The translations under genes were made by a program, and so were the position numbers. A model generated the notes under the pieces. The model worked only from the letters and a program-made list of their open reading frames with translations. It did no database searches and was not told the origin of the DNA. This document shows, one piece after another, positions 28,547 through 53,254 of a stretch of 64,000 bases of DNA. The stretch is taken from contig DASYRI010000111.1 in NCBI GenBank assembly GCA_036004545.1, forward strand, positions 16,033 to 80,032. Direction: 5' to 3'. Position 1 is the first letter of the stretch; the number at the start of each line of letters is the position of its first letter. Source of the DNA: Gemmatimonadales bacterium. GTDB taxonomy: Bacteria; Gemmatimonadota; Gemmatimonadetes; Gemmatimonadales; GWC2-71-9.

Positions 28547-28662
28547 ACCGGCGGGGAGGCCGGCCGTGGGGACGACTGGAGCGGCATCAGCATGGGCGGC
28601 GCCTTGGACCGCCCGGGGCAGCATGGTAGATTCAGGTCACTCCAGAACGACAACTCAGAGGC

Positions 28663-29793: not shown

Positions 29794-29810
29794 CTCGAAA
29801 TAAGTGGAAT

Positions 29811-29879
29811 AGGAGGTAGGAGGTAGCGAGGAGCGAGAAGGGGTGGTGGGGCGGCCCTCCTCGCTACTCGCTACCTCCT
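29811..29879. repeat. inverted GGAGGTA/GCGAGGA-type arms between the convergent MCO and leuS genes
   Basis: AGGAGGTAGGAGGTAGCGAGGAGCGAG ... CCCTCCTCGCTACTCGCTACCTCCT. Hairpin-capable, possibly a bidirectional terminator. Confidence 0.8.
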
Positions 29880-29895
29880 GCGTCCTCGGGCGCCC

Positions 29896-37799: not shown

Positions 37800-38200
37800 C
37801 GGCGGGCGTCCCACCCCGCGGGGCTCGCCCGGTAGCCGAGGGCGGCGCTGACCGCGGGCTGGGTGTACCAGCCCAGCATCACCAGCGTGCGGACGCCCCA
37901 GACGCCCTGGCGGACGGGCGGCAGCGATGAACGGGCCGCTCGTTCGAGGAACGCCGAGCGACGCGCGGCGTCGAGTGCGGCGAGGCCCCGGCCGTGGCGA
38001 AGCCAGGCGCCGAGGTCGAGAAGGCGGAGAAAGAGGCGCAGCCGGCGCCGGAGGGCCGCGGGCCGGGCCGCCAGGGCGCCCTCCACCGTCGCCTCGAGCG
38101 CGGCCCATTCCGCGGGGCCGGCGGAGGCGGTCTCGGGGACGAAAGTGGCTGCGAGGGCGCGGAACCGGGGCCGGGAGGAGGGGGTGATGAAGGTCTCCAA
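37796..38200 (-). CDS. small accessory subunit (gluconate-2-dehydrogenase subunit-3-like)
   Basis: Translationally coupled directly upstream of the GMC enzyme. Only weak family resemblance. Confidence 0.5.
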   Translation of the reverse strand: METFITPSSRPRFRALAATFVPETASAGPAEWAALEATVEGALAARPAALRRRLRLFLRLLDLGAWLRHGRGLAALDAARRSAFLERAARSSLPPVRQGVWGVRTLVMLGWYTQPAVSAALGYRASPAGWDARR

Positions 38201-38273
38201 GGCCCGAAGCTAGCGCACGCTTGCCGGGGCGGAAAGTGCGGCCTAGCTTGCCGCGAGAGACCGTGGAGGGTTC

Positions 38274-39536
38274 ATGTCCGGCACGATCGCGCCCAGCAGA
38301 GTTCCCCCGCTCGGGGCCGCCCCTCCGGTGGCTTCGGCGCCGCCGGCGGCTTCGCGTGCACCGGCGGTGGTGCGCACCGGCTACGCGGTCATCGCGGCCG
38401 CCGCGATGATAGCCATCGGACTCACCTGGGACATCGCCTGGCACCGGAGCGTGGGGCGCGACACCTTCTGGACCGCGCCGCACGTCGTCGAATACCTCGC
38501 GGCGCTGCTCGTCGGTGCGAGCTGCGGCGGGCTCATCCTGCGGAGCAGTTTCGTCGCGGGCGGCACGGGCCGCGAGCAGATGGTCCGCGTCTGGGGGTTC
38601 CGCGGCCCGTTCGGCGCCTGGGTCTCGGTGTGGGGGAGCCTCGCGATGCTCACCTCCGCGCCGTTCGACAACTGGTGGCACAACGCCTACGGCCTCGACG
38701 TCAAGATCGTGAGCCCGCCGCACATCCTGCTCCTGCTCGGCATGATCGGGATCGTGGCGGGGGCGATGCTCATGGCGCTGGCGGAGCAGAACCGCGCCAC
38801 CGACCGGGCGGCCCCCGCCCCGGCGGGGCAGGGGAGCCGCATCGCGGGCGAATTCGCGCCGGCGTTCGCGATCGCCTCCGGAATCCTTCTCCTCATGGTC
38901 GCGACCGCGACGTTCGAATACACCGGTTTCCCGAACCTCTGGCGGAGCCGGCTCTTTTACCAGATCTCCGCCGCGCTCTTCCCCCTGGTCCTCGCGGCGG
39001 CCGCCCGCGCCGGCCGGCTCCGCTGGCCCGCCACCGCGACCGCGGCGGTGTTCATGGGCGCGAGCCTGGTGATGAGCTGGGTCCTCCAGAATGTTCCGGC
39101 TGCTCCCAAGCTCGCGCCGATCAACAATCCGATCGAGCACCTGGTGCCGGCGCCGTTCCCGGTGGTGCTGGTGGTGCCCGCGCTGGTGTTCGATCTCCTC
39201 CACCGGTGGCTGGGCGACCGTCGCGACTGGCGGCTCTCCGCGCTGCTCGGCCTGGGGTTCGTGCTGTCGCTGCTCGCGATCAGCTGGCCGATGTCCACCT
39301 TCCTGCTCTCCCCCGCGGCTCGGAACCCCGTCTTCCTCGCAGACCAGTGGGACTACACCGCACGGCTTGGGCCCTGGCGTTACGAATTCTGGGATGACCT
39401 CCGCACCGGGGCCCGGGCGCTCCGGGCCGGAGGGGCCGCCCTCGGCAAGCCGCTCGCGATCGCGGTGGTGCTCGCCTTCGTCTCGGCCCGGCTCGGGCTC
39501 TGGTGGGGCGGGTGGATGCGGCGGGTCAGACGGTAG
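38274..39536 (+). CDS. polytopic membrane protein, unknown function
   Basis: GGAGGG upstream of the ATG, at least 8 hydrophobic segments, and Trp/His-rich motifs (WDIAWHRS, FDNWWHNAYGLD). Confidence 0.65.
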   Translation: MSGTIAPSRVPPLGAAPPVASAPPAASRAPAVVRTGYAVIAAAAMIAIGLTWDIAWHRSVGRDTFWTAPHVVEYLAALLVGASCGGLILRSSFVAGGTGREQMVRVWGFRGPFGAWVSVWGSLAMLTSAPFDNWWHNAYGLDVKIVSPPHILLLLGMIGIVAGAMLMALAEQNRATDRAAPAPAGQGSRIAGEFAPAFAIASGILLLMVATATFEYTGFPNLWRSRLFYQISAALFPLVLAAAARAGRLRWPATATAAVFMGASLVMSWVLQNVPAAPKLAPINNPIEHLVPAPFPVVLVVPALVFDLLHRWLGDRRDWRLSALLGLGFVLSLLAISWPMSTFLLSPAARNPVFLADQWDYTARLGPWRYEFWDDLRTGARALRAGGAALGKPLAIAVVLAFVSARLGLWWGGWMRRVRR

Positions 39537-39634
39537 AACGGTCAACGGTCAGCGGTCAACGGAACCTGCCTTGCACGCAGAGATCGGCGCGCACGGGGCT
39601 GTTCCCGTTGACCGTTGACCGTTGACTGTTGACG
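39536..39634. repeat. inverted GTCAACGG / CCGTTGAC arms with a ~41-nt spacer
   Basis: 39536-39562 versus 39604-39634, directly after the stop of the 38274..39536 gene. Confidence 0.9.
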
Positions 39635-39658
39635 TAGTTCTTCTGCGGGGGAGAGACG

Positions 39659-41191
39659 ATGTCTCGTCGTGCCAGGATCATCGCCGGCGCAACAGCGCTC
39701 GCCCTGCTCACGTCCGCCCACGTCGGCTCGCCCGACACCTGGTTCGAGGGCGCGGCGGGGCCGTACCCGGTCCGCATCGTGGTGCGCTCGCCGGGCGTGA
39801 TCCCTGGTCTCGCCGACGTCGTGGTCAGCGTCACCAGCTTCGAGCAGAGCGTGACCGCGGTCACCGCGAGCCCCGCCGCCTACAATGCCACCGATCCGAC
39901 CCGCATCCCACCCGCCGACACCGCCCGCGCGGTACCCGGCCGGCCCGGGAGCTGGACGGTGCCGCTCTGGATCATGATCCCCGGATCCTACGGCGTGCGG
40001 GTCACGGTGGCGGGCGCTCGTGGCACCGGCACCGCCATCGTCCCGGTCTCCGCCACCGCCACCCGCGTCCTCGGCATGGACCGGAAGCTGGGCTGGCTCC
40101 TCGGGGCGCTGGGCGTCTTTCTGCTGGTGGGCGCGGTGACCATCGTCGGCGCCGCCGTGCGGGAGAGCGTGCTCGCGCCGGGCGAGGCCCCCGATACCCG
40201 GCGCCGGAAGCGCGCCCGCTTCGCCATGGGCGGCGGAGGGGTGGTGCTGCTCGCGCTGCTCGGCGGCGGTAAGACCTGGTGGAACGCCGAGGACCGCGGG
40301 TATCGCAGAGGCCTGGACCGGCGCTGGACCGCCACGGCGGAGGTGGTGAGCCCGGCCGACGCGCCGCGGCTCCGGTTTTCCATCGCCGATTCGGTGTGGC
40401 GGGGCCGGAGCTGGCTGGATCGCGCCTCGACGCCGCTCATCCCCGACCACGGGAAGCTCATGCACCTCTTCCTGGTCAAGGAGGACGACGCCGGGGCATT
40501 CGCCCACCTCCATCCGGTCTCTACCGATACCGCCACCTTCGAGTCGCCGCTCCCGCCGCTCCCGCCCGGGCGGTACCGGGCCTTCGCGGACATCACCCAC
40601 GAGAGCGGATTCGCGCGGACGCTGGTCGCGAGCGTCGAGCTCCCGGGTGGCGGGCCCCCGGTCCCGACTCCCGCTCCCGGGTCACCGGCCGGCGCCGGCG
40701 ACCCCGACGACGCCTGGTTCACCGGGCTCCCAACCGATTCCGTCGCTTCGCTCGCGGGCGGCGGGTCCCTCATCTGGGAGGCGAAGCCCGGCCGCCTCAC
40801 GGCGAACGACGACGCCCGCCTCCACTTCCTGGTGCGCGAGGCGGACGGCTCGGTGGGCCGGGTGGAGCCGTACCTCGGCATGGCGGGCCACGCCGTCGTG
40901 ATGCGCGAGGATGGACAGGTGTACGTGCACTTGCACCCGATGGGGACCATCTCCGCGGCCGCGGAGGTGGCCCTCCGCGCGCGGTTGCCTTCCGACACCG
41001 CGTGGGGCATGCTCGGCCGGAGGCTCACCGCGAGCGGCGCGCTCGGCGCCGGCGCGGGACACGACATGACGTTCGATGGGCGGATCGGCTTCCCCTACGC
41101 GTTCCCCGATGCGGGGGTCTATCGGGTGTGGGTGCAGGTGCGGCGTAAGGGCGTCGTCGAGACCGCCGCCTTTCGAGTCACGGTGTACTGA
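39659..41191 (+). CDS. hypothetical exported/membrane protein with His-rich motifs
   Basis: Signal peptide ending ...LLTSA|HVGSP, two central TM segments, and a C-terminal domain with AHLHP and VHLHPMG. Confidence 0.65.
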   Translation: MSRRARIIAGATALALLTSAHVGSPDTWFEGAAGPYPVRIVVRSPGVIPGLADVVVSVTSFEQSVTAVTASPAAYNATDPTRIPPADTARAVPGRPGSWTVPLWIMIPGSYGVRVTVAGARGTGTAIVPVSATATRVLGMDRKLGWLLGALGVFLLVGAVTIVGAAVRESVLAPGEAPDTRRRKRARFAMGGGGVVLLALLGGGKTWWNAEDRGYRRGLDRRWTATAEVVSPADAPRLRFSIADSVWRGRSWLDRASTPLIPDHGKLMHLFLVKEDDAGAFAHLHPVSTDTATFESPLPPLPPGRYRAFADITHESGFARTLVASVELPGGGPPVPTPAPGSPAGAGDPDDAWFTGLPTDSVASLAGGGSLIWEAKPGRLTANDDARLHFLVREADGSVGRVEPYLGMAGHAVVMREDGQVYVHLHPMGTISAAAEVALRARLPSDTAWGMLGRRLTASGALGAGAGHDMTFDGRIGFPYAFPDAGVYRVWVQVRRKGVVETAAFRVTVY

Positions 41192-41195
41192 GCAT

Positions 41196-41310
41196 CAGGC
41201 GGACAGGCAGTCGGGCGGACAGGCGGTCAGGCGGTCAGGCGGACAGGCGGTCAGTTAGTCCGTCGGTTCACCATTTCCGCCCTTCCGCCTATCCGCCGTT
41301 CCGCCTTTCC
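41196..41310. repeat. GGCGGACAG/GGCGGTCAG array followed by an inverted TTCCGCC-type array
   Basis: 41196-41254 and 41276-41310, between the 39659..41191 stop and the kinase start. Confidence 0.85.
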
Positions 41311-41350
41311 CGTAGATTCCGGGGCTCCCACACCAGAGCCTTCCACCTCC

Positions 41351-43861
41351 GTGCCGACCGATCTTCGTTCGGATCTGCAGGCCACGCTTGGCTCCGGCTT
41401 CCGGGTCACCCGGGAGCTGGCCGGCGGGGGCATGTCGCGGGTCTTCGTCGCCGAGGAGGAGCTCCTCCAGCGCGAGATCGTGGTGAAGCTGCTCCCGCCC
41501 GACCTCATGGCGGGGTTGAGCGTCCAGCGCTTCCAGGCCGAGATCCAGCACGCCGCGCGCCTGCAGCATCCCCACATCGTCCCGGTTCTGTCGGCCGGCA
41601 TCGTCGAGTACGAGGGGGGCACCCGGGGCCCCTTCTACACCATGCCGTACATCCGTGGGCAGACGCTGCGCGCCCGGCTGGAGCGCGACGGCGCCCTGCC
41701 GCCGGACGAAGTTCGGCGCATCCTGCTCGACATCGTGGACGCGCTCACCCATGCGCACGACGCCGGTATCGTGCACCGCGACATCAAGCCGGACAACGTC
41801 TTCCTGGTGGGCAGGAACGCCCTCGTCACCGATTTCGGCGTCTCCAAGGCGCTGATGCCGACCCCGGGGGCGGTCCAGGTGACGGGGGTCGGCGTGGCCC
41901 TGGGGACCCCGGGCTACATGGCGCCGGAGCAGGCCGCGGCGGACTCGAGCCTCGACCACCGGGCGGACATCTACGCCATCGGGGTGCTGGCCTACGAGCT
42001 GCTCTCCGGGCGGCGGCCCTTCGAGGGGAGCTCGATCCAGGAGCTGCTGGTGGCGCAGGCGGTCGCGACGCCGGTCCCGCTGCTCGAGCTCCGCCCAGCG
42101 GTGCAGCCGGAGCTGGTGGCGATCGTGATGCGCTGCCTGGAAAAGCGCCCCCAGGACCGCTTCGGCACCGCCCACGAGCTGCAGGCCGCTCTCGAGGCGC
42201 TGCCCTCCGGCACCCACTCGAACGCGGGGATTCCGGTTCCGATCGCCACCACGCGGCGGCCGTTGCTCGGCTGGGCGGCGGCGGTGGTACTCGCGGCCGC
42301 GCTGCTGCTCGCCACGGGCTGGGCGCTCCGCCGCCGGTCGGCCGGTGTCGCGGCCGCCGCCGGGACAATCCACGACGCGTCGGTGGCGGTGCTCCCGCCG
42401 GAATACTTCCGGCCCGACTCCGCGGTCGCAGCGACTCTGGCCGACCTGGTGGACCGGATCAGCAACGACTTGAGCCGGATCGAGGGGCTCCGGGTGGTCA
42501 ACTACATGTCGGTCGGCGCGCTGCTCCGGCGCGGCAGCACCCCGACGCTCAAGGATCTGGGCACGGCGCTCGGGGTCGAGCATTTCGTGCTGTTCGTCCC
42601 CCGCCGCACCGGCCGCGGGGCGGAGGTGGCGGTGCAGCTGGTCGAGGCGCCGACCCAGGCCCAGCTGTGGGTGACCAGCTACGCCCCCGACGCGGCGAAC
42701 GTCGGGCAGATCGAGGAGGACGTCGTCTCCCGGGTGACCCACGCCATCCTGGGCCCGACCGCGCGGCTCCCGCTGCAGGCCCACGCGGCGCGCGCCCGGA
42801 GCGAGGGCGCGCACGAGCAATACCTCGCCGGCCAGCTCGCCCTCCGGCGGCGGACGGCGGAGGGCATTGCGGAGGCGATCCGGTACTTCGAGGAAGCCGT
42901 CCGGCTCGACTCGACCCACGCCCAGGCGGTGGGGCGGCTCGCCACGGCGCTCGCGCTCCAGCTGAGCTACGGCTACCGCACCACCATCCCGAGCTACCCG
43001 ACGGCGGCGCGGGCGCTCTCGCTCGCCGAGCGGGCGATGATTCTCGATCCCTCGCGGGGCGAGCCGGTCGCCTTCCGCGCCTACATCGAGTACCTCGCGT
43101 TCGCGCCGCTCTCCCGGGTGCGCGCGGATTTCGACCGCGCCGTCGCGCTGCACCCCGCCGAAGCCGACGTGGCCGGCTGGAACGCACTGGTGCTCCTGCG
43201 CGAAGGGCGGATCGAGCGCTCCCTGGCCGAAGCCCGCCGCGCGCTCGAGCTCGACCCGGTCTCATCCGCCCGGCACCTCACCCTGGCGCTCGCGGCGCTG
43301 GGCGCGCGTCGCTACGACCTCGCCGCGGTCGAGGCGCACCGCGCCAGCGAGACGGAGCCCGGCCTCCGGCGTCCCCGGCAGGTAGAGGCCCTGGCCCTGC
43401 TGCTTCAGAATCGCGGAGGCGAGTGCGCCGCGATGGATCTCTGGCCCCACCAGGGCGTCAAGGCGATGTGCCTGAGCGCCGCCGGCCGGGAAGCGGAGGC
43501 GCGCGCGCTGGTGGATTCGCTTCGCCGTGCCGCGGCCGGGCCGGACCAGGCCGGTCCCGGCTACTCCGACGCCGTGCCGGTGCAGGAGCTGGCGATCTAC
43601 TACGGGTGGACGGCCAACGGGCCCGAAGCGCTGCGCTATCTCCGGCTGGCGTTCGAGCGCTCGCCGGTGGGGGTGGACCAGCGGATCGTGCAATCGGGGG
43701 TATTCGACCGGATCCGCCGGGTCACCGGGTTCGGGCGGGAGCTCGAGGACCTCCAGAACGCGGTCTGGCCCCGGGTGCTGGAGCAGCGGCGGCGGCTCGA
43801 TGCCGCGGCCGGCACGACGCCGTTCGGGTTCCGGTCCGATTCCGAGAGGCCGGTCGGCTGA
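41351..43861 (+). CDS. Ser/Thr protein kinase with TM and C-terminal TPR-like region
   Basis: GGGMSRVF, VVK, HRDIKPDN, DFG and APE motifs. GTG start. Confidence 0.9.
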   Translation: MPTDLRSDLQATLGSGFRVTRELAGGGMSRVFVAEEELLQREIVVKLLPPDLMAGLSVQRFQAEIQHAARLQHPHIVPVLSAGIVEYEGGTRGPFYTMPYIRGQTLRARLERDGALPPDEVRRILLDIVDALTHAHDAGIVHRDIKPDNVFLVGRNALVTDFGVSKALMPTPGAVQVTGVGVALGTPGYMAPEQAAADSSLDHRADIYAIGVLAYELLSGRRPFEGSSIQELLVAQAVATPVPLLELRPAVQPELVAIVMRCLEKRPQDRFGTAHELQAALEALPSGTHSNAGIPVPIATTRRPLLGWAAAVVLAAALLLATGWALRRRSAGVAAAAGTIHDASVAVLPPEYFRPDSAVAATLADLVDRISNDLSRIEGLRVVNYMSVGALLRRGSTPTLKDLGTALGVEHFVLFVPRRTGRGAEVAVQLVEAPTQAQLWVTSYAPDAANVGQIEEDVVSRVTHAILGPTARLPLQAHAARARSEGAHEQYLAGQLALRRRTAEGIAEAIRYFEEAVRLDSTHAQAVGRLATALALQLSYGYRTTIPSYPTAARALSLAERAMILDPSRGEPVAFRAYIEYLAFAPLSRVRADFDRAVALHPAEADVAGWNALVLLREGRIERSLAEARRALELDPVSSARHLTLALAALGARRYDLAAVEAHRASETEPGLRRPRQVEALALLLQNRGGECAAMDLWPHQGVKAMCLSAAGREAEARALVDSLRRAAAGPDQAGPGYSDAVPVQELAIYYGWTANGPEALRYLRLAFERSPVGVDQRIVQSGVFDRIRRVTGFGRELEDLQNAVWPRVLEQRRRLDAAAGTTPFGFRSDSERPVG

Positions 43862-43920
43862 GCGAACGGCGGGGTCAGTAGCGCAAGCCGGAAGCGCACG
43901 TCGCGGGCGGCAGTTGCGGG

Positions 43921-44230
43921 TCAGGTCGTGCCGTTCCCGGCAGGGGCTCTAGGGCTGGCGCCGGCGGGCTCCGGCACGTTGTTCTTTCGTCTCCCGAAGT
44001 ACCGCTTGAAGGCCGCGGCCGCGGCCGCGGCCGCGGCGGCGAGGCCGAGGAGAATGAATTTCTTCAACGCGAGGATGGCGACCCACACCACTTTGAAGAA
44101 TCCGGCTTTGACGGCCGCCGCTCCGGCGATCAGGCCCACGACGCCGTACGTGGCGGCTTTGTCCTTCCCGGGGAGGTAGTCGGCGTAGCGGTGCCCTTCG
44201 TTGAAGTCTACCGCCGCCAGGACTGCAGCT
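43921..44230 (-). pseudogene. 3' remnant of a DUF2167-like membrane-anchored protein gene
   Basis: Only the C-terminal ~100 aa (FNEGHRYADYLPGKDKAATYGVVGLIAGAAAVKAG...FKRYFGRRK) resemble the family as I remember it. Upstream in-frame sequence is unrelated, and composition changes at about 44230. Confidence 0.5.
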
Positions 44231-44435
44231 CCGGAGGACGTTGCTGGCACGGTAGGCGTTATGGTGCGGGTCGGGTAACACGGCGCTGCATCCGCGAGGC
44301 GGGTGGGGCGTTTTTCGTGTCCGACACTGTTCGAGGTCACAAGTTTGGGTGACGAAAATGAGTCAGTCCGTCTGACTTGACAAATTGGCGGAATTCCGTT
44401 ACCGGTGGCCCGAATTCCCGACGGGGGCATTCCTA

Positions 44436-45167
44436 ATGAGATCCTTCGTCACCATGATGATCCTCCTCCTGTTCTCCTCGGGCTGCGGCACCGATTCGAT
44501 GTCTACCCCTCCTGAAGGCAGGAAGCCCCGGTTCGACGTCGACCCATCCAAGGTGACGATCCCGTCCGACGCGACGGCGAGGGACCTCCTCGAGCGACAA
44601 GTAATAGAACAAATCACCGCCCGTGTGAAACCCAAGGAGCAAGCCGCCGTCCTCGAAGCGATTCGCGACGATCGCCGGGGGCGAGCATGGGCTGTCTATG
44701 GCGACAAAGAACTCAGCCGGCTCTTCTCGGTTCTGTATGCGATCCGTGACGCCCGTGCGGACGAAGAAGGCATGCGGAGTCGGCGGGCGCTCGCGTCCTC
44801 CCAGGAGGCGAACGTGCTCGTCGCTGTTGTCGAGTCCTTTCCTGAACCCTCCGTTTTTGCGCAGGTCACCCGCTCGACGGGTCCGCACGCCAGAAATGTG
44901 GTTCTCATTCGGCGAAGTGCGCTCTCGCCAGCGCGGCTTGCGACCGCGCTCGAGGCCGTGTCCGAGTCCCGCCGAATGGACGGGGACTTCCCACGGGAGG
45001 AGCGCATCGTCCTGCTCCGAGACTCGGGTCCCGTCGCACCGACCGTGCATGCCGCGAGAGCCGCCACGATCATTTCCAAACTGCGTTCAGGCGCCCTGCG
45101 GGAGGTGCCTGGGCACGGCACGCTGGTGGCGACCGAGGTGACCCTGCCTCCCGAACCGCGGCGCTAA
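44436..45167 (+). CDS. orphan lipoprotein (cassette gene 1)
   Basis: Lipobox LLLFSSGC and ATG at 44436. No known domain. The C-terminal ~115 aa resemble cassette gene 3. Confidence 0.6.
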   Translation: MRSFVTMMILLLFSSGCGTDSMSTPPEGRKPRFDVDPSKVTIPSDATARDLLERQVIEQITARVKPKEQAAVLEAIRDDRRGRAWAVYGDKELSRLFSVLYAIRDARADEEGMRSRRALASSQEANVLVAVVESFPEPSVFAQVTRSTGPHARNVVLIRRSALSPARLATALEAVSESRRMDGDFPREERIVLLRDSGPVAPTVHAARAATIISKLRSGALREVPGHGTLVATEVTLPPEPRR

Positions 45168-45210
45168 CGCCCTCGTCGATCAGGAAAGCGAATAGAACCG
45201 GAGCCGAACC

Positions 45211-45825
45211 ATGCGTTGGAGAGTCCTTCTCGCTGCGGTGAGTGGATTCGCCGGACTGGGTTTCTTGGCCGATGCGGCAAACCCGTCACGGCTTTGCGCG
45301 GACGGGACGTGCGACGAGGAAGGCGCGGACCTTACCAGTCCTGAGTTCTATACATCCAACGTGCGGGTTGTGATTCGGATCAACAATGTTGGAGACCGAA
45401 CGCTCTATGCGCGAGCGACGCACTGGATCAATCAGAACAAACGTCAGGGCCCCGGCAGCGCGTGGTACGTGCCGGCATCCTGGGACCCGTCGGACAAAGA
45501 CTCGGACGGCAAACAGTGGTTTGCGGAAGGGAATTGGCTGGGACTCTGTACCTGCGTTGGAAGAATCCCCTATATCCGCGCGGCGTCTCCTCCCGGTAAC
45601 TTCGACGGAACCACTTGGTCGGTTCAGACGGAAGAAGACATCGAACAAGACACCGGAGGCGAAGGGGGCGGCGGCGGCGGTGGCGGGGGTGGCAGCGGAG
45701 GAGGGATGACCTGCTACACCCTGACAACCGATTGGTACTGGTACTATCCGGACACCGACACGTACGTATACGATCACTCGGATTACCGGAGCTGGTGCGA
45801 AAACAACGGGGAGTACCAGACGTGA
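45211..45825 (+). CDS. orphan secreted Cys-containing protein with a poly-Gly linker and an aromatic/acidic C-terminal mini-domain (cassette gene 2)
   Basis: GGAG 8 nt upstream of the ATG, a signal peptide, 6 Cys residues, and GGEGGGGGGGGGGSGGG followed by MTCYTLTTDWYWYYPDTDTYVYDHSDYRSWCENNGEYQT. Confidence 0.55.
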   Translation: MRWRVLLAAVSGFAGLGFLADAANPSRLCADGTCDEEGADLTSPEFYTSNVRVVIRINNVGDRTLYARATHWINQNKRQGPGSAWYVPASWDPSDKDSDGKQWFAEGNWLGLCTCVGRIPYIRAASPPGNFDGTTWSVQTEEDIEQDTGGEGGGGGGGGGGSGGGMTCYTLTTDWYWYYPDTDTYVYDHSDYRSWCENNGEYQT

Positions 45826-45874
45826 GAGCAGACGATTGCCGAACCGCCTGTTCGACCCCCGCTGGAGCTTGGGT

Positions 45875-46348
45875 ATGAATCCCAATAAGGTGGTCAACGT
45901 ATCTGCCTGCGCTCTGCTATTGATGTGTCCAGGGGTGGGTGGCAATCTTCTCGCACAGGGAAGCCCTTTTGCTCCACCAAATCTCCCGGACGGGCGAGTG
46001 CCTGTCACACTCGTCCTGGTGAGCAACGGAGCGGCTCCCACCGTGTTCAGACGCGCCGGTCCTGAGCCGAGGAATCTGGTCCTGGTGGATTCCGCGAAGA
46101 TGGATGTTCAGAAGCTTTCCGATGCGATCTTCGGGCTCCTCGTGCTGGAGGCAACCGATCCGGGCGGCACCAATCGCAGCGATAACGAGGCGAGGCGCAT
46201 CAGCCTTGACAAACCGCACCCGGTTTACCGATGGGCGGAAGACGCGCTCATTCGACTGAAAAGCGCCACAAAACAACCGATCAGCGGCCTGGGTGAGCAC
46301 CGAAGTCTTAGAATGTGGTTGCCACTAGTGCGAGGACACGGCCGTTAG
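45875..46348 (+). CDS. orphan secreted protein, distant paralog of cassette gene 1 (cassette gene 3)
   Basis: Signal peptide from ATG 45875. Shared pattern with gene 1: P(S/T)VF, GP..RN(V/L)VL(I/V), ...(I/L)..L(R/K)S......G.G......(V/W)(T/L)(L/P). Confidence 0.5.
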   Translation: MNPNKVVNVSACALLLMCPGVGGNLLAQGSPFAPPNLPDGRVPVTLVLVSNGAAPTVFRRAGPEPRNLVLVDSAKMDVQKLSDAIFGLLVLEATDPGGTNRSDNEARRISLDKPHPVYRWAEDALIRLKSATKQPISGLGEHRSLRMWLPLVRGHGR

Positions 46349-46472
46349 CATGAGCCCCTGACCTCCAGGAGGGCGCGCGAGAGCGCCGGCGAGAAAGTTC
46401 GAAGTCGAGCTCATGCGGTGCCCCACACGTCCTTCTCCGCAGCGGGGTGCTCGTTCGAAGGGCGCGTTGCAG

Positions 46473-46514
46473 AGCGGGCGACCGGACTCGAACCGGCGAC
46501 GTCCAGCTTGGGAA
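46473..46514 (-). tRNA. orphan 3' fragment of tRNA-Gly(CCC): anticodon loop to discriminator, no 5' half
   Basis: The minus strand reads TTCCCAA GCTGG ACGTC GCCGG TTCGAGT CCGGT CGCCCGC T. That is the anticodon loop (CCC), the 3' anticodon stem, the variable loop, a complete T-arm, the acceptor 3' strand and U73. No matching GCGGGCG 5' acceptor strand or D-arm lies upstream. Confidence 0.7.
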
Positions 46515-46854
46515 TGGGCGAGCCCGACGATCCCGACCTCTCGAGCGTTACCAGCGACCCCTTCCAGGTTCGACTCGACTGGTTCGACTATCCCCACTAC
46601 CGCACGGTGACGGGTATCGTCGAGATCGCGTTCTGAGCGCTCTCAGGAACACCGCGACGCGCCGTTGCCGTAGCGGGCCAGGAATCTCCTTCCCCCTCCC
46701 GACGGTTCTCTGTGCCATCGGTCCGGAGTGCGACCCCATCAGCCCCCGCGCCGCCCCGCCCGCGATCCTGTAGCTATCCGCTCGTCTCGCGATAACTTGA
46801 AGGCGTCCCTGCACCACTTGTACGCCTCCCACCCTCCGGCCGGAGCGCCGCGCG

Positions 46855-47820
46855 ATGGGAACCGAACCGGCCGAGAAAAAGCCCCGCCGCCGGCGGAAGA
46901 CCGCGGCACCCGAGCCGCGCGGCCTGAGCGCGCGGCAGGTCGGCGCCGGTTCGCCCCCCGGCCCGGTCATGCGCCTCATGGAGCAGGTCGAGGCCGACGG
47001 CGGCTCGGTGATCGGCCCCTATCGCGAGCCGCTGGGCGGGCTCTGGCAGGTCATCGCCGCGCTGCCGGTCGAGCGGGTGGAGCCCACACCCTACCAGCGC
47101 GACCTCTCCGAGCCCCACGTCGCGCGCCTCGCGGAAGCGATCGAGAAGCTGGGCCGCTACGTGGATCCGATCGTGGTGGTGCGCGGCGACGACGGCAAGT
47201 ACTGGACCCCGAACGGCAATCATCGGCTCGCGGCGCTCCGGTCGCTCGGCGTGCGCTCGGTGGTGGCGCTGGTGGTGCCCGAGCCGGAGGTCGCCCGGCG
47301 AATTCTGGTGCTCAACACCGAAAAGGCCCACAACGTCCGGGAGCGCGCGCTCGAGGTGATCCGCCTGGCGGAGGCGCTGGCCGGCCTCGACGACCGCCCC
47401 GAGCGCGACTACGCCACCGAGTTCGAGGAGCCGGCGCTCCTGACCCTGGGGCTCTGCTACCAGCAGAACGGGCGCTTCTCCGGCGGCGCCTATCACCCGG
47501 TGCTCAAGCGGACCGAGAAGTTCGGCGCGCAGAAGCTCTCCAGCGCGCTCGCCACGCGCCGGGACCGCTCGGCGCGACTCATGGAGCTCGATGCTGCGGT
47601 GTTGGAAGCGGTGAAGAAGCTCCGCGAGCGGGGGCTGGAGAGTCCCTACCTCAAGGCGTTCGTGCTGGCCCGGATCAACCCGCTCCGCTTCCAGCGTGGC
47701 GCCAAGGCGGATCCCGACGACGTGATCGCCACCATGCTCGCCGCCGCGAAAAGGCTCGACCCCGCCAGGGTGAAAGCGGACCAGGTGGCGCGGTCGGGGG
47801 GCGTGCCGGACGAGGGATGA
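46855..47820 (+). CDS. ParB N-terminal-domain (ParB/Srx-fold) protein
   Basis: VERVEPTPYQRDL...PIVVV....YWTPNGNHRLAALRSLG is typical of the ParB-like nuclease/CTPase fold. The basic N-terminus is KKPRRRRK. Confidence 0.7.
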   Translation: MGTEPAEKKPRRRRKTAAPEPRGLSARQVGAGSPPGPVMRLMEQVEADGGSVIGPYREPLGGLWQVIAALPVERVEPTPYQRDLSEPHVARLAEAIEKLGRYVDPIVVVRGDDGKYWTPNGNHRLAALRSLGVRSVVALVVPEPEVARRILVLNTEKAHNVRERALEVIRLAEALAGLDDRPERDYATEFEEPALLTLGLCYQQNGRFSGGAYHPVLKRTEKFGAQKLSSALATRRDRSARLMELDAAVLEAVKKLRERGLESPYLKAFVLARINPLRFQRGAKADPDDVIATMLAAAKRLDPARVKADQVARSGGVPDEG

Positions 47821-47830
47821 CATAACCCGC

Positions 47831-50218
47831 ATGGCCGAGCTCTGGGAGCAGCTTCAGGCCACGCTGGGCGGCGCCTACACGCTGGAGCGCGAGCTGGGCG
47901 GCGGCGGGATGTCGCGGGTTTTCGTGGCCACCGAACGGCGCCTCGGCCGCCGGGTGGTGGTGAAGGTCCTGCGCTCCGAGATCGCGGCCGGAACCAGCGC
48001 GGAGCGGTTCGAGCGGGAGATGGCGCTCTGTGCCCGCTGCCACCATCCCCACATCGTCCCGCTCCTCGCCGCGGGCGAGGTCGGCGGCCTTCCCTGGTTC
48101 ACGATGCCGCTGGTGGAGGGGGAATCGCTCCGCGACCGGCTGGAGCGGCAGGGCCCGCTGCCCGTGGGGGAGGCGGTGCGCCTGCTGACCGAAGTGGCCG
48201 ATGCCCTGGCCTACGCGCACCGCCTGGGCATCGTCCATCGCGACATCAAGCCCGAGAACATCCTGCTCCACGACGGCCACGCCGTCGTCGCCGACTTCGG
48301 GGTGGCCAAGGCCTTCCACGCCGCGACCCGGGCCGAGCTCCCGTCGCAGGCCACCGGCGTCGGCGTCGTGATCGGCACGCCGGCCTACATGGCACCCGAA
48401 CAGGCGATGGGTGACGCCGGCGTGGACCATCGGGTGGATCTCTACGCGCTCGGCGTGGTGGCCTTCGAGCTCCTCACCGGCCAGCACCCGTTCAGTGGGA
48501 TGACTCCTCAGGCGATCCTCGCGGCGCAGCTGAACCGGACTCCGCCGCCGATCGCGCGGGCACGTCCCGAGTGTCCGCCCGGGCTCGCGGCGCTGATCGG
48601 CCGGCTGCTCGCGCGGGAGCCCGCGGACCGCCCGGCGACGGCGGAGGAGGTGCGCGCCGAGCTCCTCGCCCTGGCGGGCGGCGCCGCCGCTCACGCCGGA
48701 AGCCGGCCTCCGGGCCGTCGGGTCTGGCTCGCGGTCGGGGCTCCCTTCCTCGCCGCATCGCTGCTGTTGATCGCGCTGGCCGCCCGGCATCGCCCGAATC
48801 CAAGGCCGGCGCCGGCCTCCGGCGATGCCGGAGTGAAATCGCTGGCGGTGCTTCCCTTTCAGAACATCGGAGGAGACTCGACCACCAACTACTTCAGCGA
48901 TGGGCTGGCCGAGGAGCTGATCAGCGCGCTGGGCCGGCTCGGGGGTCTCCGGGTGGCGTCGCGCACCTCCGCGTTCGCCGCCAAGGCGCGGAGCGGCGAC
49001 CTGCGCGAAATCGGACAGCGCCTCGCCGTGGCGACGGTGCTCGAGAGCAGCGTGCGCCGCGATGGTCCCCGGGTCCGGGTCACCACCCGCCTGGTGGACG
49101 TCGCGCGCGATTCCCAGCTCTGGACCGGAGAGTACGAGAGCCGGCTCGAGAACGTCTTTGCGGTGCAGGACACCATCGCCCACGCCATCGCGGGGGCGCT
49201 CCGGATCACCCTGGCCCGCGGAGGGGGAGCGCGGCTGGTCGCCCAGGGCACCGCCGATCCGGAGGCGCACGACCTGTACCTGCGGGGCCGCGAGTTCCTC
49301 GCCAATCGGACGCCGGTCTCGCTGCGGAAGGCGATCGACGCCTTCCGCGCGGCGCTGGCCCGGGACTCGACCTACGCGCTGGCCCAGGCGGGCCTCGCCG
49401 ATGCCTACAGCCTGGCCGTGCCGTTTGGCGGCTTCTACCCCGCCGAGGCGATTCCGCTGGCCGAGACCGCGGCCCACCGGGCGCTCGCGCTGGATTCCAC
49501 GCTGGCGGAGGTGCACGTCTCCCTCGGCATCATCGCGATGTTTCACGACTGGGACTGGAGGGAGGCGAGCCGGCGCCTTTCCCGCGCCGTCCAGCTCAAC
49601 CCAAGCTCGGCGCAGGCGCGGCTGTTCCATGCCTGGTACCTCCTGCTGACCGGCCGTCCCGAGGAAGGGCTGGCCGAAGTCGAGCGGGCGAGGACGCTGG
49701 ATCCGCTCTCGCTGATCATCAACACGCGGGTGGCGAGCTTCCTGCACTTCATGGGGCGCGACGCGGAGGCCATTCCCGCCTTCCAGCGTGCCCTCGCGCT
49801 CGACTCCACGTTCGCGCCCGCCCGGGCCGGGCTCGCGCTTTCCTATGCGGAGCTCGGGCGCTTCAAGGAGGCGCTGTCCCTTCCCGCCCCCCTCGAATCC
49901 CTGCTGGGGACCTTCGAGGCGGGCACGTTCGCCGCGGTGCAGGCGATGGCGGGCCGCCCCTTCGAGGCAAGGCGGATTCTGGGCGAAATGGAAACGGTTC
50001 GGAAGCAGCGCTACATGGGAGCGGAGGGATTCGCCGACGTGCGCGCGGTCCTGGGAGATACCGACGCGGCGTTCGCCGAGCTGGAGCGGGGCTATCGGGA
50101 GCGTGCGTTCACGCTCGTCACCATCCGGGTCGAGCCGATGCTCGCCCCACTCCACGCCGATCCGCGCTGGGGCCGGCTCATGGCACGGCTCAATTTTCCG
50201 CCTGCGCCCACCCGTTAA
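47831..50218 (+). CDS. Ser/Thr protein kinase with TM, periplasmic TolB-N-like module and TPR repeats
   Basis: GGGMSRVF, VVK, HRDIKPEN, DFG, APE; then SLAVLPFQNIGGDSTTNYFSDGLAEELI; then TPR-like repeats. Confidence 0.9.
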   Translation: MAELWEQLQATLGGAYTLERELGGGGMSRVFVATERRLGRRVVVKVLRSEIAAGTSAERFEREMALCARCHHPHIVPLLAAGEVGGLPWFTMPLVEGESLRDRLERQGPLPVGEAVRLLTEVADALAYAHRLGIVHRDIKPENILLHDGHAVVADFGVAKAFHAATRAELPSQATGVGVVIGTPAYMAPEQAMGDAGVDHRVDLYALGVVAFELLTGQHPFSGMTPQAILAAQLNRTPPPIARARPECPPGLAALIGRLLAREPADRPATAEEVRAELLALAGGAAAHAGSRPPGRRVWLAVGAPFLAASLLLIALAARHRPNPRPAPASGDAGVKSLAVLPFQNIGGDSTTNYFSDGLAEELISALGRLGGLRVASRTSAFAAKARSGDLREIGQRLAVATVLESSVRRDGPRVRVTTRLVDVARDSQLWTGEYESRLENVFAVQDTIAHAIAGALRITLARGGGARLVAQGTADPEAHDLYLRGREFLANRTPVSLRKAIDAFRAALARDSTYALAQAGLADAYSLAVPFGGFYPAEAIPLAETAAHRALALDSTLAEVHVSLGIIAMFHDWDWREASRRLSRAVQLNPSSAQARLFHAWYLLLTGRPEEGLAEVERARTLDPLSLIINTRVASFLHFMGRDAEAIPAFQRALALDSTFAPARAGLALSYAELGRFKEALSLPAPLESLLGTFEAGTFAAVQAMAGRPFEARRILGEMETVRKQRYMGAEGFADVRAVLGDTDAAFAELERGYRERAFTLVTIRVEPMLAPLHADPRWGRLMARLNFPPAPTR

Positions 50219-50272
50219 CTGTTAACCGTTCGCCGTTCACGGCCCCGTCCCCTGACCCCTGACCCCTGTCCT
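50212..50272. repeat. CCGTTAAC-type units followed by CCCCTGA heptamers
   Basis: Fills the 52-nt gap between convergent genes and includes both stop codons (TAA 50216-50218 and the complement of CTA 50271-50273). Confidence 0.85.
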
Positions 50273-51338
50273 ACGGCGCCTTCCCCAGCACCCCGATACT
50301 CGCCACGGTGCCGCCCTTGGTGAGCGACGGCACCGCGTTGATGTAGAGCACCAGCCCCGCCTCGGGCGCGGTGAAGTCCGCCAGCTTCCGGCCCAGGTAG
50401 TCGGTGACGTAGCCCAGCCGGGCGCCGGCCTGCACCCACATGTCGCGGGGAACCAGCGGGTAGAAGACGCCGTTCGTGTCGCTCGAAACGGTCACCACCC
50501 TGGTGAACCAGAGCGGGTGCTTGAGCGGCTTGAGCTCGCGCGGGATCATCCTGAGGTAGCCCATCACGTTGAGGCACCCGGCGATCAGCGCGTCGAGATC
50601 GGCGGGCATCACCGTCCCGGCGTAACCCGCCTCCGCGGTGATCGAGGGCTTGCCCCGGGTGGTCGCCGTGTTCTCCAGGTAGCGCGACGCGGCCGGGTCC
50701 TTCGGCCGGTCGGTCGAGACGATGATGTGGTCGAGCCCGAAGGCGAGCACCATCGCCTTGGAGATCGAGTCCTGCTTCGGGTTGCCGGTGACGGTCCAGT
50801 AGCTGTAGGGACGGAGGCTCTCGTCCAGGTCCCCGCCGTGGAGATCGATGAGATGGTCGCTCGGCTCCACGACCTGCCTGGTGATCAGGTCCGACGCCCG
50901 CTCGGTGACGGTGCCGGCCGGATTCCCCGGATAGAAGCGATTCATGTTCTTCCGGTCGCCCGGGTTCAGGTGCGGCACCTTCTGCTCGAACGAGGCGATG
51001 TTGACCAGCGGAACGACGATCACGGTGCCGGCGATCGTTCCGGGATCCAGCTGCCCTATCAGCTTCTCGAGCGCGATGATCGAGGCGTACTCGGTGCCGT
51101 GCGCGCCGGACACCAGGGCGAGCACCGGCCCCGGGCGGGCGCCGTGGATCACAGCGACGGGAATCGCGTAGCCCGAATCCACCCCCGGCGGAACGGTGAT
51201 CGCGCCGAAGGCCTTCTCGCCCCGCCGGGCCGTGGCCGTGCCGACCGTGAAGCTGAGATGGGCATCCGGCGCCTGGGCGGGCGCGGCGGGGGGCGCCGCG
51301 AGCGGCGCGAGCAGGGCGAGGGCGGCGGCGAAGCGCAT
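50271..51338 (-). CDS. succinylglutamate desuccinylase/aspartoacylase-family (M14-like) zinc hydrolase, secreted
   Basis: Signal peptide, SGAHGTEY...NR.YPG...DLHGGD motifs. Start at ATG 51338. Confidence 0.8.
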   Translation of the reverse strand: MRFAAALALLAPLAAPPAAPAQAPDAHLSFTVGTATARRGEKAFGAITVPPGVDSGYAIPVAVIHGARPGPVLALVSGAHGTEYASIIALEKLIGQLDPGTIAGTVIVVPLVNIASFEQKVPHLNPGDRKNMNRFYPGNPAGTVTERASDLITRQVVEPSDHLIDLHGGDLDESLRPYSYWTVTGNPKQDSISKAMVLAFGLDHIIVSTDRPKDPAASRYLENTATTRGKPSITAEAGYAGTVMPADLDALIAGCLNVMGYLRMIPRELKPLKHPLWFTRVVTVSSDTNGVFYPLVPRDMWVQAGARLGYVTDYLGRKLADFTAPEAGLVLYINAVPSLTKGGTVASIGVLGKAP

Positions 51339-51456
51339 GGCGGGCCTCAGCGGCGACGAGGTGATCTGGCGCGACGGCGGGCGGCGTCCGATGTTACTGC
51401 CGTTCCGCCGCCGTGGCGAGGCCGCGGCGCGGCCCGAAAGAGGGTGGAGGCGTGGC

Positions 51457-52758
51457 GTGAAACGGCGCGACTTCAACCGGCATCTCCTTGGGGCGGCGGC
51501 CGCCGCCCTCCTGCCGCCCTGGTCCTCCCGCCAGGCTGGGCTCCGGGTGGACGGTGCCCGGATCCTCGCCCACCTCGCCGCCCTCGCCGAGCTCGGGAAG
51601 AATGAGCGGGGAGGTGTCAGCCGGGTCGCGTACACCGAATCCGACCGGCAGGGCCGCGAGGTGGGGATGGGCTGGATGCGCGAAGCGGGGCTTGAGACCA
51701 CGGTGGACGCGGCAGCCAACCTGGTCGGCCGCCGCTCCGGGCGGGACGCGTCGCTCAAGCCGATCGTCCTCGGCTCCCACATCGACTCGGTGCCCCAGGG
51801 CGGAAACTACGACGGCGACGTCGGCTCGCTCTCCGCCATCGAGGTGGCGCGTACCCTCGATACGGCGGGTCTGACGCTCCGCCACCCGCTCGAGGTGCTG
51901 ATCTTCCAGAACGAGGAGGGTGGCACGATCGGAAGCCACGCGATCGCGACGGGCCTGAGCGAGGCCGAGCTGGGCCGCGTGGCCCAGAGCGGCAAGACGA
52001 TCCGGGAGGGAATCCGCTTCCTCGGCGGCGATCCCGACCGGCTGGAGTCGGCGCGCCGCAAGCCGGGCGACATCGCCGGGTATCTGGAGCTCCACATCGA
52101 GCAGGGCGGCGTCCTCGACGAGCGCAAGATCCCGATCGGGGTGGTCCTCGGAATCGTGGGGATCCGGCACTGGGACGTCACGATCGAGGGCTTCGCGAAC
52201 CACGCCGGCACCACCCCGATGGACCGGCGGAAGGACGCGCTGCTCACCGCCGCGCGGAGCATCGAGGCGGTCAATCGCCTGGTGCGCGCCACGCCCGGCC
52301 GCCAGGTGGGGACGGTCGGAAGGATCCAGGCAGCGCCGGGCGCCTATAATGTGATCCCTGACAGGGTTACCTTCGGACTCGAGCTGCGCGACCTGGACGA
52401 GGCGAAAATCCTCCGGCTGCACCGGCAGATCATCGCGGAGTGCCGGCGGCTCGCCCGCGCGGACGGTACCACGCTCTCGGAGAAGGAGACCCTCGCCATC
52501 ACCCCCGCCTTCTCCGACCCCCGGATCCGCCGCGTCATCGCGGAGGCCGCGCGCGTGCTCGGACTTGCCACGCTCGCGCTGCCGAGCGGGGCGGGCCACG
52601 ACGCGCAGGAGATGGCGCGGCTCGGCCCCGTGGGCATGATCTTCATTCCAAGCGTGGGCGGCATCAGCCACTCGCCCAGAGAATTCTCCCGCCCCGCCGA
52701 CATCGAGCGCGGCGCCAACGTCCTGCTCCACGCGCTCCTCGCCCTCGATGCCGCGTGA
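51457..52758 (+). CDS. M20-family amidohydrolase (allantoate / N-carbamoyl-L-amino-acid amidohydrolase type) with a Tat-like signal
   Basis: KRRDFNRHLLGAAAAALL, GSHIDSVPQGGNYDGDVG and HAGTTPM motifs. GTG 51457 is chosen; ATG 51391 is an alternative. Confidence 0.85.
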   Translation: MKRRDFNRHLLGAAAAALLPPWSSRQAGLRVDGARILAHLAALAELGKNERGGVSRVAYTESDRQGREVGMGWMREAGLETTVDAAANLVGRRSGRDASLKPIVLGSHIDSVPQGGNYDGDVGSLSAIEVARTLDTAGLTLRHPLEVLIFQNEEGGTIGSHAIATGLSEAELGRVAQSGKTIREGIRFLGGDPDRLESARRKPGDIAGYLELHIEQGGVLDERKIPIGVVLGIVGIRHWDVTIEGFANHAGTTPMDRRKDALLTAARSIEAVNRLVRATPGRQVGTVGRIQAAPGAYNVIPDRVTFGLELRDLDEAKILRLHRQIIAECRRLARADGTTLSEKETLAITPAFSDPRIRRVIAEAARVLGLATLALPSGAGHDAQEMARLGPVGMIFIPSVGGISHSPREFSRPADIERGANVLLHALLALDAA

Positions 52759-53254
52759 GGCCGTGACGGTGTCCCGCAAGCTGCTGGCCATCGCCGGCCC
52801 GGGCGAGGGTGCGTCCGCCGAGGCCGTCGCCGATGCCGAGCGGATCGGCGAGCTCGCCGCGAGCGCGGGCTGGGTGGTGATCTGCGGCGGACGGAACGCC
52901 GGCGTCATGGCGGCCGCGGCGCGCGGGGCCGCGCGGGCGGGCGGCATCGCGCTGGGCCTGCTCCCGTCGCCCGACGACCGCGACACGGCGCCGGGGCTCA
53001 CCGCCGCGCTCGCCACCGGGCTCGGCGAGGCGCGGGACGCCGTGCTCGCGCAGAGCTGCCACGCGATGGTGGTCTGCGGGATGAGCGCCGGCACGGCGGC
53101 GGAAGTGGCGCTCGCGATCAGGGCGTGGAAGCCGGTGGTGCTGGTCCGGCCCGACCGCGCCGCCGAAGAGTTTCTGGGCGGCCTGAGCGGCGACCGGGTC
53201 TTCGTCGTGAGCGACGCCGATCAGGCCGTCGCCCTGCTCATGACGAGCAGCTGA
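52748..53254 (+). CDS. TIGR00725/LOG-like Rossmann-fold protein
   Basis: VICGGRNAGVMAAAARGA...GG and MSAGTAAEVALA patterns. It overlaps the upstream stop by 11 nt and converges on selO with a 17-nt overlap. Confidence 0.65.
   Translation: MPREAVTVSRKLLAIAGPGEGASAEAVADAERIGELAASAGWVVICGGRNAGVMAAAARGAARAGGIALGLLPSPDDRDTAPGLTAALATGLGEARDAVLAQSCHAMVVCGMSAGTAAEVALAIRAWKPVVLVRPDRAAEEFLGGLSGDRVFVVSDADQAVALLMTSS

Follow-up and report, generated by a model that had tools for sequence, protein, structure and literature searches.

Several described systems attach a short, conserved module at the extreme C-terminus to diverse N-terminal domains (N-domains) through a low-complexity linker, including the sorting tags of LPXTG/sortase, PEP-CTERM/exosortase, GlyGly-CTERM/rhombosortase, and the C-terminal domain (CTD) of the type IX secretion system (T9SS). 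In dockerin-cohesin systems, a conserved C-terminal module on variable proteins is matched by a conserved partner domain. Two further kinds of system are relevant here, namely polymorphic toxins or bacteriocins with their immunity proteins, and tRNA-associated genomic islands. Here, we describe a segment at positions 43862-46854 of a 64,000-nt stretch (contig DASYRI010000111.1 of assembly GCA_036004545.1), which belongs to a soil Gemmatimonadales metagenome-assembled genome (MAG); the whole 64-kb stretch is called the window throughout this paper. The segment is horizontally acquired and carries three genes for exported proteins, p1, p2 and p3 (Table 1). Judged from sequence comparison, p2 and p3 form a rare, undescribed gene pair, and p2 ends in a conserved tail that is predicted to be a beta-hairpin.

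The hairpin tail shares with the sorting tags the C-terminal position, the linker and the diversity of N-domains, and also the genetic linkage to a dedicated conserved protein. In other respects it differs. Hairpin proteins lack a transmembrane helix and basic tail and end 4-8 residues past the second Cys of the tail; p2 of the window stops at CENNGEYQT, and nothing hydrophobic is present there. Searches of NCBIfam and Pfam with 42 aligned members of the family gave no consistent match, MYXO-CTERM included, and the partner stands one-to-one beside each tagged gene and has no protease or transpeptidase motif. The T9SS CTD is a beta-sandwich of ~80-100 amino acids (aa), and the hairpin tail is far shorter. 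The dockerin-cohesin systems offer an analogy for the mechanism proposed below, in which the partner domain occurs both free (p3) and fused to a lipoprotein (p1); however, there is no sequence or fold kinship, and the tail consists of one hairpin of 30 residues in place of a duplicated, Ca-binding helix module.

Table 1. Features of the inserted segment and its two neighbours, in window positions.
Feature	Position	Strand	Description
Ser/Thr kinase gene	41351-43861		Left neighbour of the insert
Whole insert	43862..46854	.	~3.0 kb; kinase stop codon to ParB-like start codon
DUF2167 membrane-protein gene, 3' remnant	43921..44229	-	PF09935, E = 8.8e-15
p1	44436..45167	+	243-aa putative lipoprotein; own N-terminal domain and p3-like C-terminal domain (~residues 135-240)
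p2	45211..45825	+	204-aa secreted protein: N-domain, poly-Gly linker, C-terminal hairpin tail (predicted)
Gly-rich linker of p2	45655..45705	+	Residues 149-165; alignment columns 154-164 mostly Gly (42 members)
Conserved tail of p2	45712..45798	+	Cys168 to Cys196, C-x27-C; aromatic beta-hairpin (predicted)
p3	45875..46348	+	157-aa secreted protein (signal-peptide-like N-terminus, by eye)
tRNA-Gly(CCC), 3' half	46472..46514	-	43 nt, anticodon loop to discriminator base; no CCA
Terminal inserted DNA	46515..46854	.	340 nt, apparently non-coding, GC 0.674
ParB-like gene	46855-47820		Right neighbour of the insert

The p2/p3 gene pair and the hairpin-tail family

The p2 protein contains 6 Cys and 30 Gly residues and has a signal-peptide-like N-terminus (by eye) and no lipobox. 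A word-indexed search returned just two distant relatives, which share only the last ~35 residues, and the closest full-length relative is P0032 (54% identity). When a profile of the tail was searched against 1.84 billion representative proteins, 51 clusters (50% identity) were recovered at E <= 1e-3, each with 1-3 members from short contigs. The matched proteins are 61-349 aa long (mostly 200-310 aa) and invariably carry the match at their extreme C-terminus, and the tail of the window itself scores 55.8 bits against the hidden Markov model (HMM) of the tail (E = 3.5e-15). Therefore p2, which an earlier note on this DNA had regarded as an orphan, is a member of a family. The consensus, which follows a Gly-rich linker, is CYTvTvDHYWYYPDTGxxEYRYtExxtWCE. 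Residues C168, Y176 and C196 are invariant in all of the 42 aligned members, and W177, Y178, P180, T182, E186, Y187 and R188 are kept in at least 90% of them. A lipobox was recognized by regular expression in 27 of the 42. BLAST splits the N-domains into 12 groups, and the p2 of the window shares its group with P0032 alone. Among the 42 members, no Pfam match was obtained at E <= 0.01, and NCBIfam gave only four sub-threshold matches, each to a single member, including MYXO-CTERM MtsC (E = 0.071). A literature search on the tail motif and on this type of locus found nothing relevant.

One member of the tail family, P0048 (200 aa), has an N-domain with the motif HEAGHE (HExxH) and weak matches to metallopeptidases, namely the NCBIfam M6 domain and snapalysin and Pfam Reprolysin_5 (E = 0.08), which suggests that the tail can be joined to an enzyme. 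At the nucleotide level, four independent short-read contigs end at 45551-45752, in or near the poly-Gly run of p2 (GGC/GGT/GGG repeats), which is thus an assembly break point.

The structure of p2 was predicted by AlphaFold2 from the alignment of 42 sequences. Strands were modelled at residues 166-179 and 184-198 with a predicted local distance difference test (pLDDT) of 91-96, and the rest of the model is poor. The tail is therefore predicted, at high confidence, to be a long two-stranded beta-hairpin. Based on a manual register, one face of the hairpin would present Y169, V171, H175, W177, Y179, Y185, Y187, Y189 and W195, with C168 opposite C196, and the other face would present Thr, Asp, Glu and Arg; in this register the first face is nearly all aromatic. 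Searching the p2 model against the PDB with Foldseek gave nothing under E = 2.4, and what it returned were unspecific long hairpins, for example HU/IHF arms and ribosomal proteins.

Such a hairpin invites a comparison with membrane-inserting hairpins, of which the stem hairpins of pore-forming toxins and the CsgG-type lipoprotein channels are known analogues. The amphipathic hairpin might enter the outer membrane, where several copies would form a beta-barrel, and p3 would act in the periplasm as a chaperone to keep the hairpin in solution. Strands of 14-15 residues with strict alternation of apolar/aromatic and polar faces, and the fact that most family members are lipoproteins, are in line with this idea. 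However, the fold search brought only generic hairpins, and Tyr, Trp and His, not aliphatic residues, make up most of the apolar face, which is unusual for a membrane-buried surface. Membrane insertion is considered very improbable.

An aromatic face could also bind a polymer. The hairpin would then be a small glycan- or polymer-binding tail that fixes the protein to polysaccharide, peptidoglycan or a surface, with p3 as an accessory. The fungal CBM1 module, which comprises ~36 residues and is also carried on a flexible linker, provides the analogy. A module of ~30 residues with a predicted disulfide closure, a flexible linker, a continuous aromatic face in the manual register and diverse N-domains would suit this function, and so would some of the neighbouring genes: BNR/sialidase-like propellers are encoded upstream in contexts L005 and L094 (sub-threshold matches), and L101 adjoins alpha-amylase-family genes. 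On the other hand, the carbohydrate-related neighbours are weak or inconsistent, no match to a carbohydrate-binding module (CBM) was found at E <= 1 for the window or among the 42 members, and the near-constant adjacency and co-conservation of p3 are left unexplained. A glycan-binding tail is thus regarded as decidedly unlikely.

The association of p2-like with p3-like genes was evaluated in 11 independent contexts, and in 10 of these a p3 homolog lies directly 3' of the tail-bearing gene. These are the window, L005, L007 (= L008-L010 contig), L011, L092, L093, L095, L101, L102 (= L103) and, probably, L006, whose p3 homolog is called only probable since the contig ends after 57 codons of it. 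The p3 homologs 3' of the tail genes in L005, L007, L011, L092, L093, L095, L101 and L102 match the p3 HMM with E-values from 1e-10 to 1e-77. The pair is defined here by a C-x27-C tail with the YWYYPDTG core, placed after a Gly-rich linker at the extreme C-terminus, and by a p3 homolog directly 3' of it; the window belongs to this type, with a tail that diverges at positions 183, 186, 188 and 189. The gene upstream of the pair varies: a p1-like gene was found only in the window and L092, a BNR-like propeller (sub-threshold) in L005 and L094, and another family of 370-450 aa in L006, L101 and L102. The wider surroundings also vary among contigs, where the GC content at third codon positions (GC3) of the module is just mildly below that of the neighbouring genes. 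Consequently, of the trio that the earlier note had read as a module, the recurrence of p2 with a partner is borne out, but the recurring unit is the p2-like and p3-like pair, and p1 is an occasional companion. Tails of two aligned homologs are 58-63% identical to that of the window, the window p3 is 27-48% identical to its eight homologs, and the N-domains are at ~20-30%. The hairpin-tail system appears to be confined to Gemmatimonadota-like soil bacteria.

A tight two-gene layout with a small conserved gene directly 3', both products being exported, recalls toxin-immunity pairs. On that reading, the p2-like (lipo)protein would be an antibacterial toxin acting on the envelope and p3 its periplasmic immunity protein, after the pattern of colicin/pyocin or lipoprotein-toxin systems, and the pair would be a horizontally spread module of competition. 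The patchy, rare distribution in varied contexts, the atypical GC3 and the resemblance of p3 to a binding protein are shared with polymorphic toxin/bacteriocin and immunity systems. However, the conservation is inverted. In polymorphic toxins, the N-terminus is constant and the C-terminal toxin varies along with the immunity protein, whereas here the N-domains are variable, and the C-terminal element of ~30 residues and p3 are conserved. Moreover, no toxin or immunity family was matched in Pfam, NCBIfam or PADLOC, and no secretion or delivery genes lie near the module. A toxin-immunity pair is thus an unlikely explanation, and the label "effector" given to the module in the earlier note is not borne out, as no secretion system, toxin domain or host could be connected with it. 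A precursor of a ribosomally synthesized and post-translationally modified peptide (RiPP) or bacteriocin, whose tail would be released after the Gly run, is hardly credible: no gene for a maturation enzyme or transporter accompanies the p2/p3 pair, and the single radical-SAM gene seen adjoins a lone p1 homolog in L001, on the opposite strand.

As regards the three proteins, which had been described as exported and without a recognizable domain, the open reading frames (ORFs) are as stated and the description holds: p1, p2 and p3 gave no Pfam or NCBIfam match even at E <= 1 and no match in PHROGs, PADLOC or PDB sequences by profile search. No tblastn match of p2 or p3 was found in phage and plasmid records, and the p3 family profile found no relatives in 185,579 species genomes and none in viral contigs. 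The p1 N-terminus has a hydrophobic stretch followed by SSGC, which was taken as a lipobox by eye; this candidate lipobox, MRSFVTMMILLLFSSGC, has a non-canonical -3 residue. The genes are closely spaced, with 43 nt between p1 and p2 and 49 nt between p2 and p3. GGAG motifs precede p2 and p3; no sigma-70-like promoter was found by a scan, nor a convincing terminator after p3, and the scan says little for this phylum.

Only 87 aa of p3 are present in the public annotation (P0006; VGQ17_07480, part of p3; p2 is VGQ17_07475). The 157-aa ORF is supported since nine homologs align with it from the signal peptide on. The window p3 scores 238 bits against the p3 HMM, a model in which it is itself included. 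Most of the residues that are invariant in p3 are Leu, Ala or Arg, and no group of them looks catalytic; they seem mainly structural, and thus p3 is probably not an enzyme.

Homology between p1 and p3, which had been suggested from the letters, was examined by HMM alignment and proved real but remote. BLASTP of p1 against p3 gave E = 9e-4. Alignment of the two families by hhalign gave E = 1e-4 with a probability of 58% over 95 columns, and the E-value fell as sequences were added (from 1.2e-3 through 5.9e-4 to 1e-4). The alignment pairs p3 residues 48-152 with p1 residues 135-240, collinearly and up to both C-termini, and its score of 34.9 exceeds those of both the best of 40 column shuffles (18.0) and the reversed alignment (17.7). 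The p3 HMM also matches the p1 homolog P0005 (E = 1.3e-3). From these profile comparisons, p1 carries at its C-terminus a domain that is remotely paralogous to p3. Two homologs of p1 were found, P0005 (62% identity, L001) and L092:1-456 (45%). P0005 (L001:8001-8666 = L002:7126-7791) is a solitary p1 homolog with neither signal peptide nor lipobox. Its gene begins 21 nt after a Pkinase-Tricorn-PD40 gene and has a GC3 of 0.60, compared with 0.81 for the kinase. It looks like a second, independent foreign copy of p1, 5'-truncated and also located just 3' of a Ser/Thr kinase gene.

The inserted segment and its origin

The composition of the segment is clearly atypical, and the shift claimed in the earlier note was confirmed by both GC and tetranucleotide profiles. 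Positions 44231-46472 have a GC content of 61.9%, compared with 70.7% over the whole window. This region has the lowest GC (z = -5.3; background range 0.657-0.745) and the largest tetranucleotide distance (z = +7.6) of 309 sliding windows of equal length. In 400-nt windows, GC is 0.59-0.67 across 44000-46800 and 0.70-0.77 on both sides. The difference does not arise from amino-acid content, since GC3 is 0.74 for p1, 0.68 for p2 and 0.63 for p3, whereas the kinase, ParB-like and kinase genes that flank the segment are at 0.89-0.93.

The indel status of the segment was established by comparison with related species. The ParB-like protein is conserved in Gemmatimonadales; data with one genome per species contain 519 relatives. 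The orthologs of the kinase and the ParB-like protein are directly adjacent, with a gap of -4 to +29 nt, in the eight closest species (L012, L013, L015, L016, L018, L019, L020 and L021; ParB identity 77-87%), and the upstream 510-aa gene or the downstream kinase is also common to several of these species. Since the two genes are adjacent in the relatives, the whole of 43862-46854 is an insertion. No DNA resembling the insert was found at the related loci compared, and the 340 nt at its right end, across which ORFs had no family match, are missing from the related species as well. The segment is thus ~3 kb of horizontally acquired DNA in a very short spacer between the kinase and ParB-like genes. 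Horizontal acquisition, as the earlier note had proposed along with the synteny comparison that could reveal it, is supported by the atypical composition and by absence from this locus in the eight nearest species; the bounds given then, 44231-46472, enclose foreign DNA but fall short of its true extent.

Two other explanations of the insertion were rejected. Mis-assembly or a chimera in the MAG was ruled out because independent contigs span both junctions at 100% identity: the junctions are identical in the independent assemblies L003, L004, L098, L099 and L100, and identical JGI and Logan contigs from three samples tile over both of them. An ancestral segment lost in the relatives was rejected in view of the foreign composition together with the absence from the eight nearest species.

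The insert is composed, in order, of the 3' remnant of a DUF2167 gene, p1-p2-p3 on the same strand, the 3' half of tRNA-Gly(CCC) and 340 nt of further DNA. As described before, the DUF2167-like gene lacks its 5' two-thirds: only profile positions 173-236 of 238 are matched, ~the first 72% of the domain being missing, and the ORF 43921-44430 (-) reads past the remnant into unrelated sequence. The tRNA fragment at the right edge was likewise recovered by direct alignment, with its 5' half missing. It aligns to positions 30-72 of the E. coli tRNA-Gly(CCC) glyU and is identical at 39 of 43 nt to an intact tRNA-Gly(CCC) of L096, a 98.7-kb IMG/VR viral contig. That contig carries an array of six tRNA genes (L096:23-562; Asp, Lys, Thr and three Gly). 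No complete tRNA was detected by ARAGORN in the window or by Rfam at E <= 1 in 43000-48000; both are silent because the 5' half is missing.

These truncated genes are not resident genes broken by the insertion, and the earlier view of the flanks is amended accordingly. At the related loci, tRNA-Gly was found in 0 of 50 scanned (the sole tRNA found being an Arg tRNA, 8 kb off, in L044) and the DUF2167 gene in 0 of 80, so both remnants came inside the insert, and the kinase and ParB-like genes are direct neighbours in the eight closest species. The remnant of DUF2167 has a GC3 of 0.835, between those of the host genes and the cassette, and GC falls to 0.52-0.59 in the region upstream of p1; for these reasons the insert itself is a mosaic with at least two origins.

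In its atypical GC and tetranucleotides, its indel status against sister species, the 3' tRNA fragment at its edge and its lineage-specific exported cargo, the insert is like tRNA-associated islands. It is unlike them in that there is no integrase, no intact tRNA in the window and no second direct repeat, and the target in relatives is a spacer between protein genes. As the target is not a tRNA gene, the tRNA piece travelled with the DNA and does not mark the target. The absence of integrase and transposase noted earlier was upheld: no recombinase was matched in any ORF of 43862-46854, and no integrase or transposase occurs among the precomputed Pfam matches listed for genes on identical contigs covering 36436-53820. 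A 22-nt core of the tRNA fragment is single in the window even at <=3 mismatches, no attachment-site (att)-like repeat at the left boundary scored above shuffles, and a target duplication was likewise not found. Without a recombinase and a second att copy, the insert is not mobile now.

As for its origin, the insert may be a fragment or remainder of a larger element that formerly resided at a tRNA-Gly gene of the donor. The 3' end of the tRNA fragment faces p3, a polarity that would fit a cassette downstream of a tRNA gene whose 5' half later vanished. The donor may have had ~60-63% GC and resembled the organism of L092 (GC 0.626). L092 is the only other place where the p1-p2-p3 trio was seen, with the three genes in the same order and at similar GC3, and a donor of this GC is plausible because the modules of L092 and L095 (GC3 0.57-0.71) resemble the cassette of the window.

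A small islet of this kind could also be decaying cargo, that is, the cassette could be a non-functional leftover of a degraded island that is kept by chance. The gene remnants at both edges, the lack of a recombinase and of an att partner, mutations of the window tail at near-invariant positions, the truncated p1 homolog standing alone in L001 without a signal peptide, and the failure of a scan, possibly unsuited to this phylum, to find a sigma-70-like promoter all speak for decay. Nevertheless, the three ORFs are intact, the signal peptides are kept, the GGAG motifs are in place before p2 and p3, and the identical sequence is fixed (100%) in three independent samples. Decay of the cassette is judged quite improbable.

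The spacer between the kinase and ParB-like genes holds other DNA elsewhere. In two related species, a different insert of ~1.6 kb lies at the same junction (L017:8447-9934 and L022:2562-4180); that of L017 is one gene of 495 aa with an HHHWDH motif and, by eye, the look of a metallo-beta-lactamase fold. In view of these other inserts the spacer tolerates insertions, and it appears to be a recurrent insertion spot. Further upstream, the spacer that separates the kinase gene from the 510-aa gene (39659-41191) contains, at 41195-41267, ~nine tandem copies of the 8-nt GGCGG(T/A)CA. The second-lowest GC in the window is found at 28600-31000 (0.64-0.67), a deviation much weaker than that of the cassette. 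This region holds a gene for a 376-aa lipoprotein (28663-29793) with multicopper-oxidase-like His motifs, recognized by eye, and also covers the 3' part of the leucyl-tRNA synthetase gene (29896-32346, minus strand).

A proposed docking mechanism for the hairpin tail

The mechanism proposed here is docking. The hairpin tail would serve as a docking tag on variable N-domains, and p3 would be its receptor or chaperone, located in the periplasm or at the outer membrane and probably contacting the aromatic side of the hairpin. What is thereby put in place or displayed would be the variable N-domain, as the working part. As a lipid-anchored paralog of p3, p1 could tether the complex to the membrane in this version of the module. 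Binding is preferred to catalysis because conservation is much higher in the tail and p3 than in the N-domains, and because the hairpin is predicted with high pLDDT values and p3 has no catalytic-looking set of residues.

Several observations weigh against the overall explanation, insertion history and docking taken together. The link between the tail and p3 rests on adjacency and co-conservation and is indirect, and in L094, the sole exception among the 11 contexts, the tail gene has no detectable adjoining p3. The AlphaFold2 model of p3, built from a two-sequence alignment, has a pLDDT of 32 and is unusable. In the window itself, the tail deviates at residues 183-189 (45757-45777) from residues that are near-invariant or strongly predominant in the family (G183D, E186V, R188D and Y189H), and p2 is without the pre-linker Cys found in 38 of 41 members. 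The deviations may reflect relaxed constraint or a variant specificity, and this copy may be drifting or non-functional. Finally, if the tRNA half were a simple attR at the end of an island that includes the cassette, it would have to face the other way.

Taking these points together, the best explanation as a whole is a foreign mosaic patch that carries a p2/p3 gene pair with a docking mechanism, and the balance of probability leans slightly towards it. The docking mechanism taken alone, in which p3 would bind the hairpin, is a tentative proposal that we hold to be possible rather than probable. More tentative still is the broader proposal that the tail and the p3/p1-type receptor domain constitute an unrecognised docking or sorting system of the diderm envelope, by which a tag of ~30 residues would send diverse lipoproteins and enzymes to a partner.

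Significance of the locus

The genomic event is in itself ordinary, namely a small, degraded, horizontally acquired islet, although it is a clean case of gene remnants at the edges of an insertion that belong to the incoming DNA and not to the recipient. What is new is the extremely rare pair of hairpin-tail gene and p3, which has no Pfam, NCBIfam, PHROGs, PADLOC or PDB-sequence match and whose very well conserved tail has a confidently predicted and unusual shape. If the pair were a toxin with its immunity protein, or junk, it would be of local interest only. Should the tail prove to be a tag for docking or sorting, it would represent a new principle of envelope targeting in a poorly studied, largely uncultured phylum, and such a compact aromatic hairpin, stapled by a disulfide, might be useful as a binding tag.

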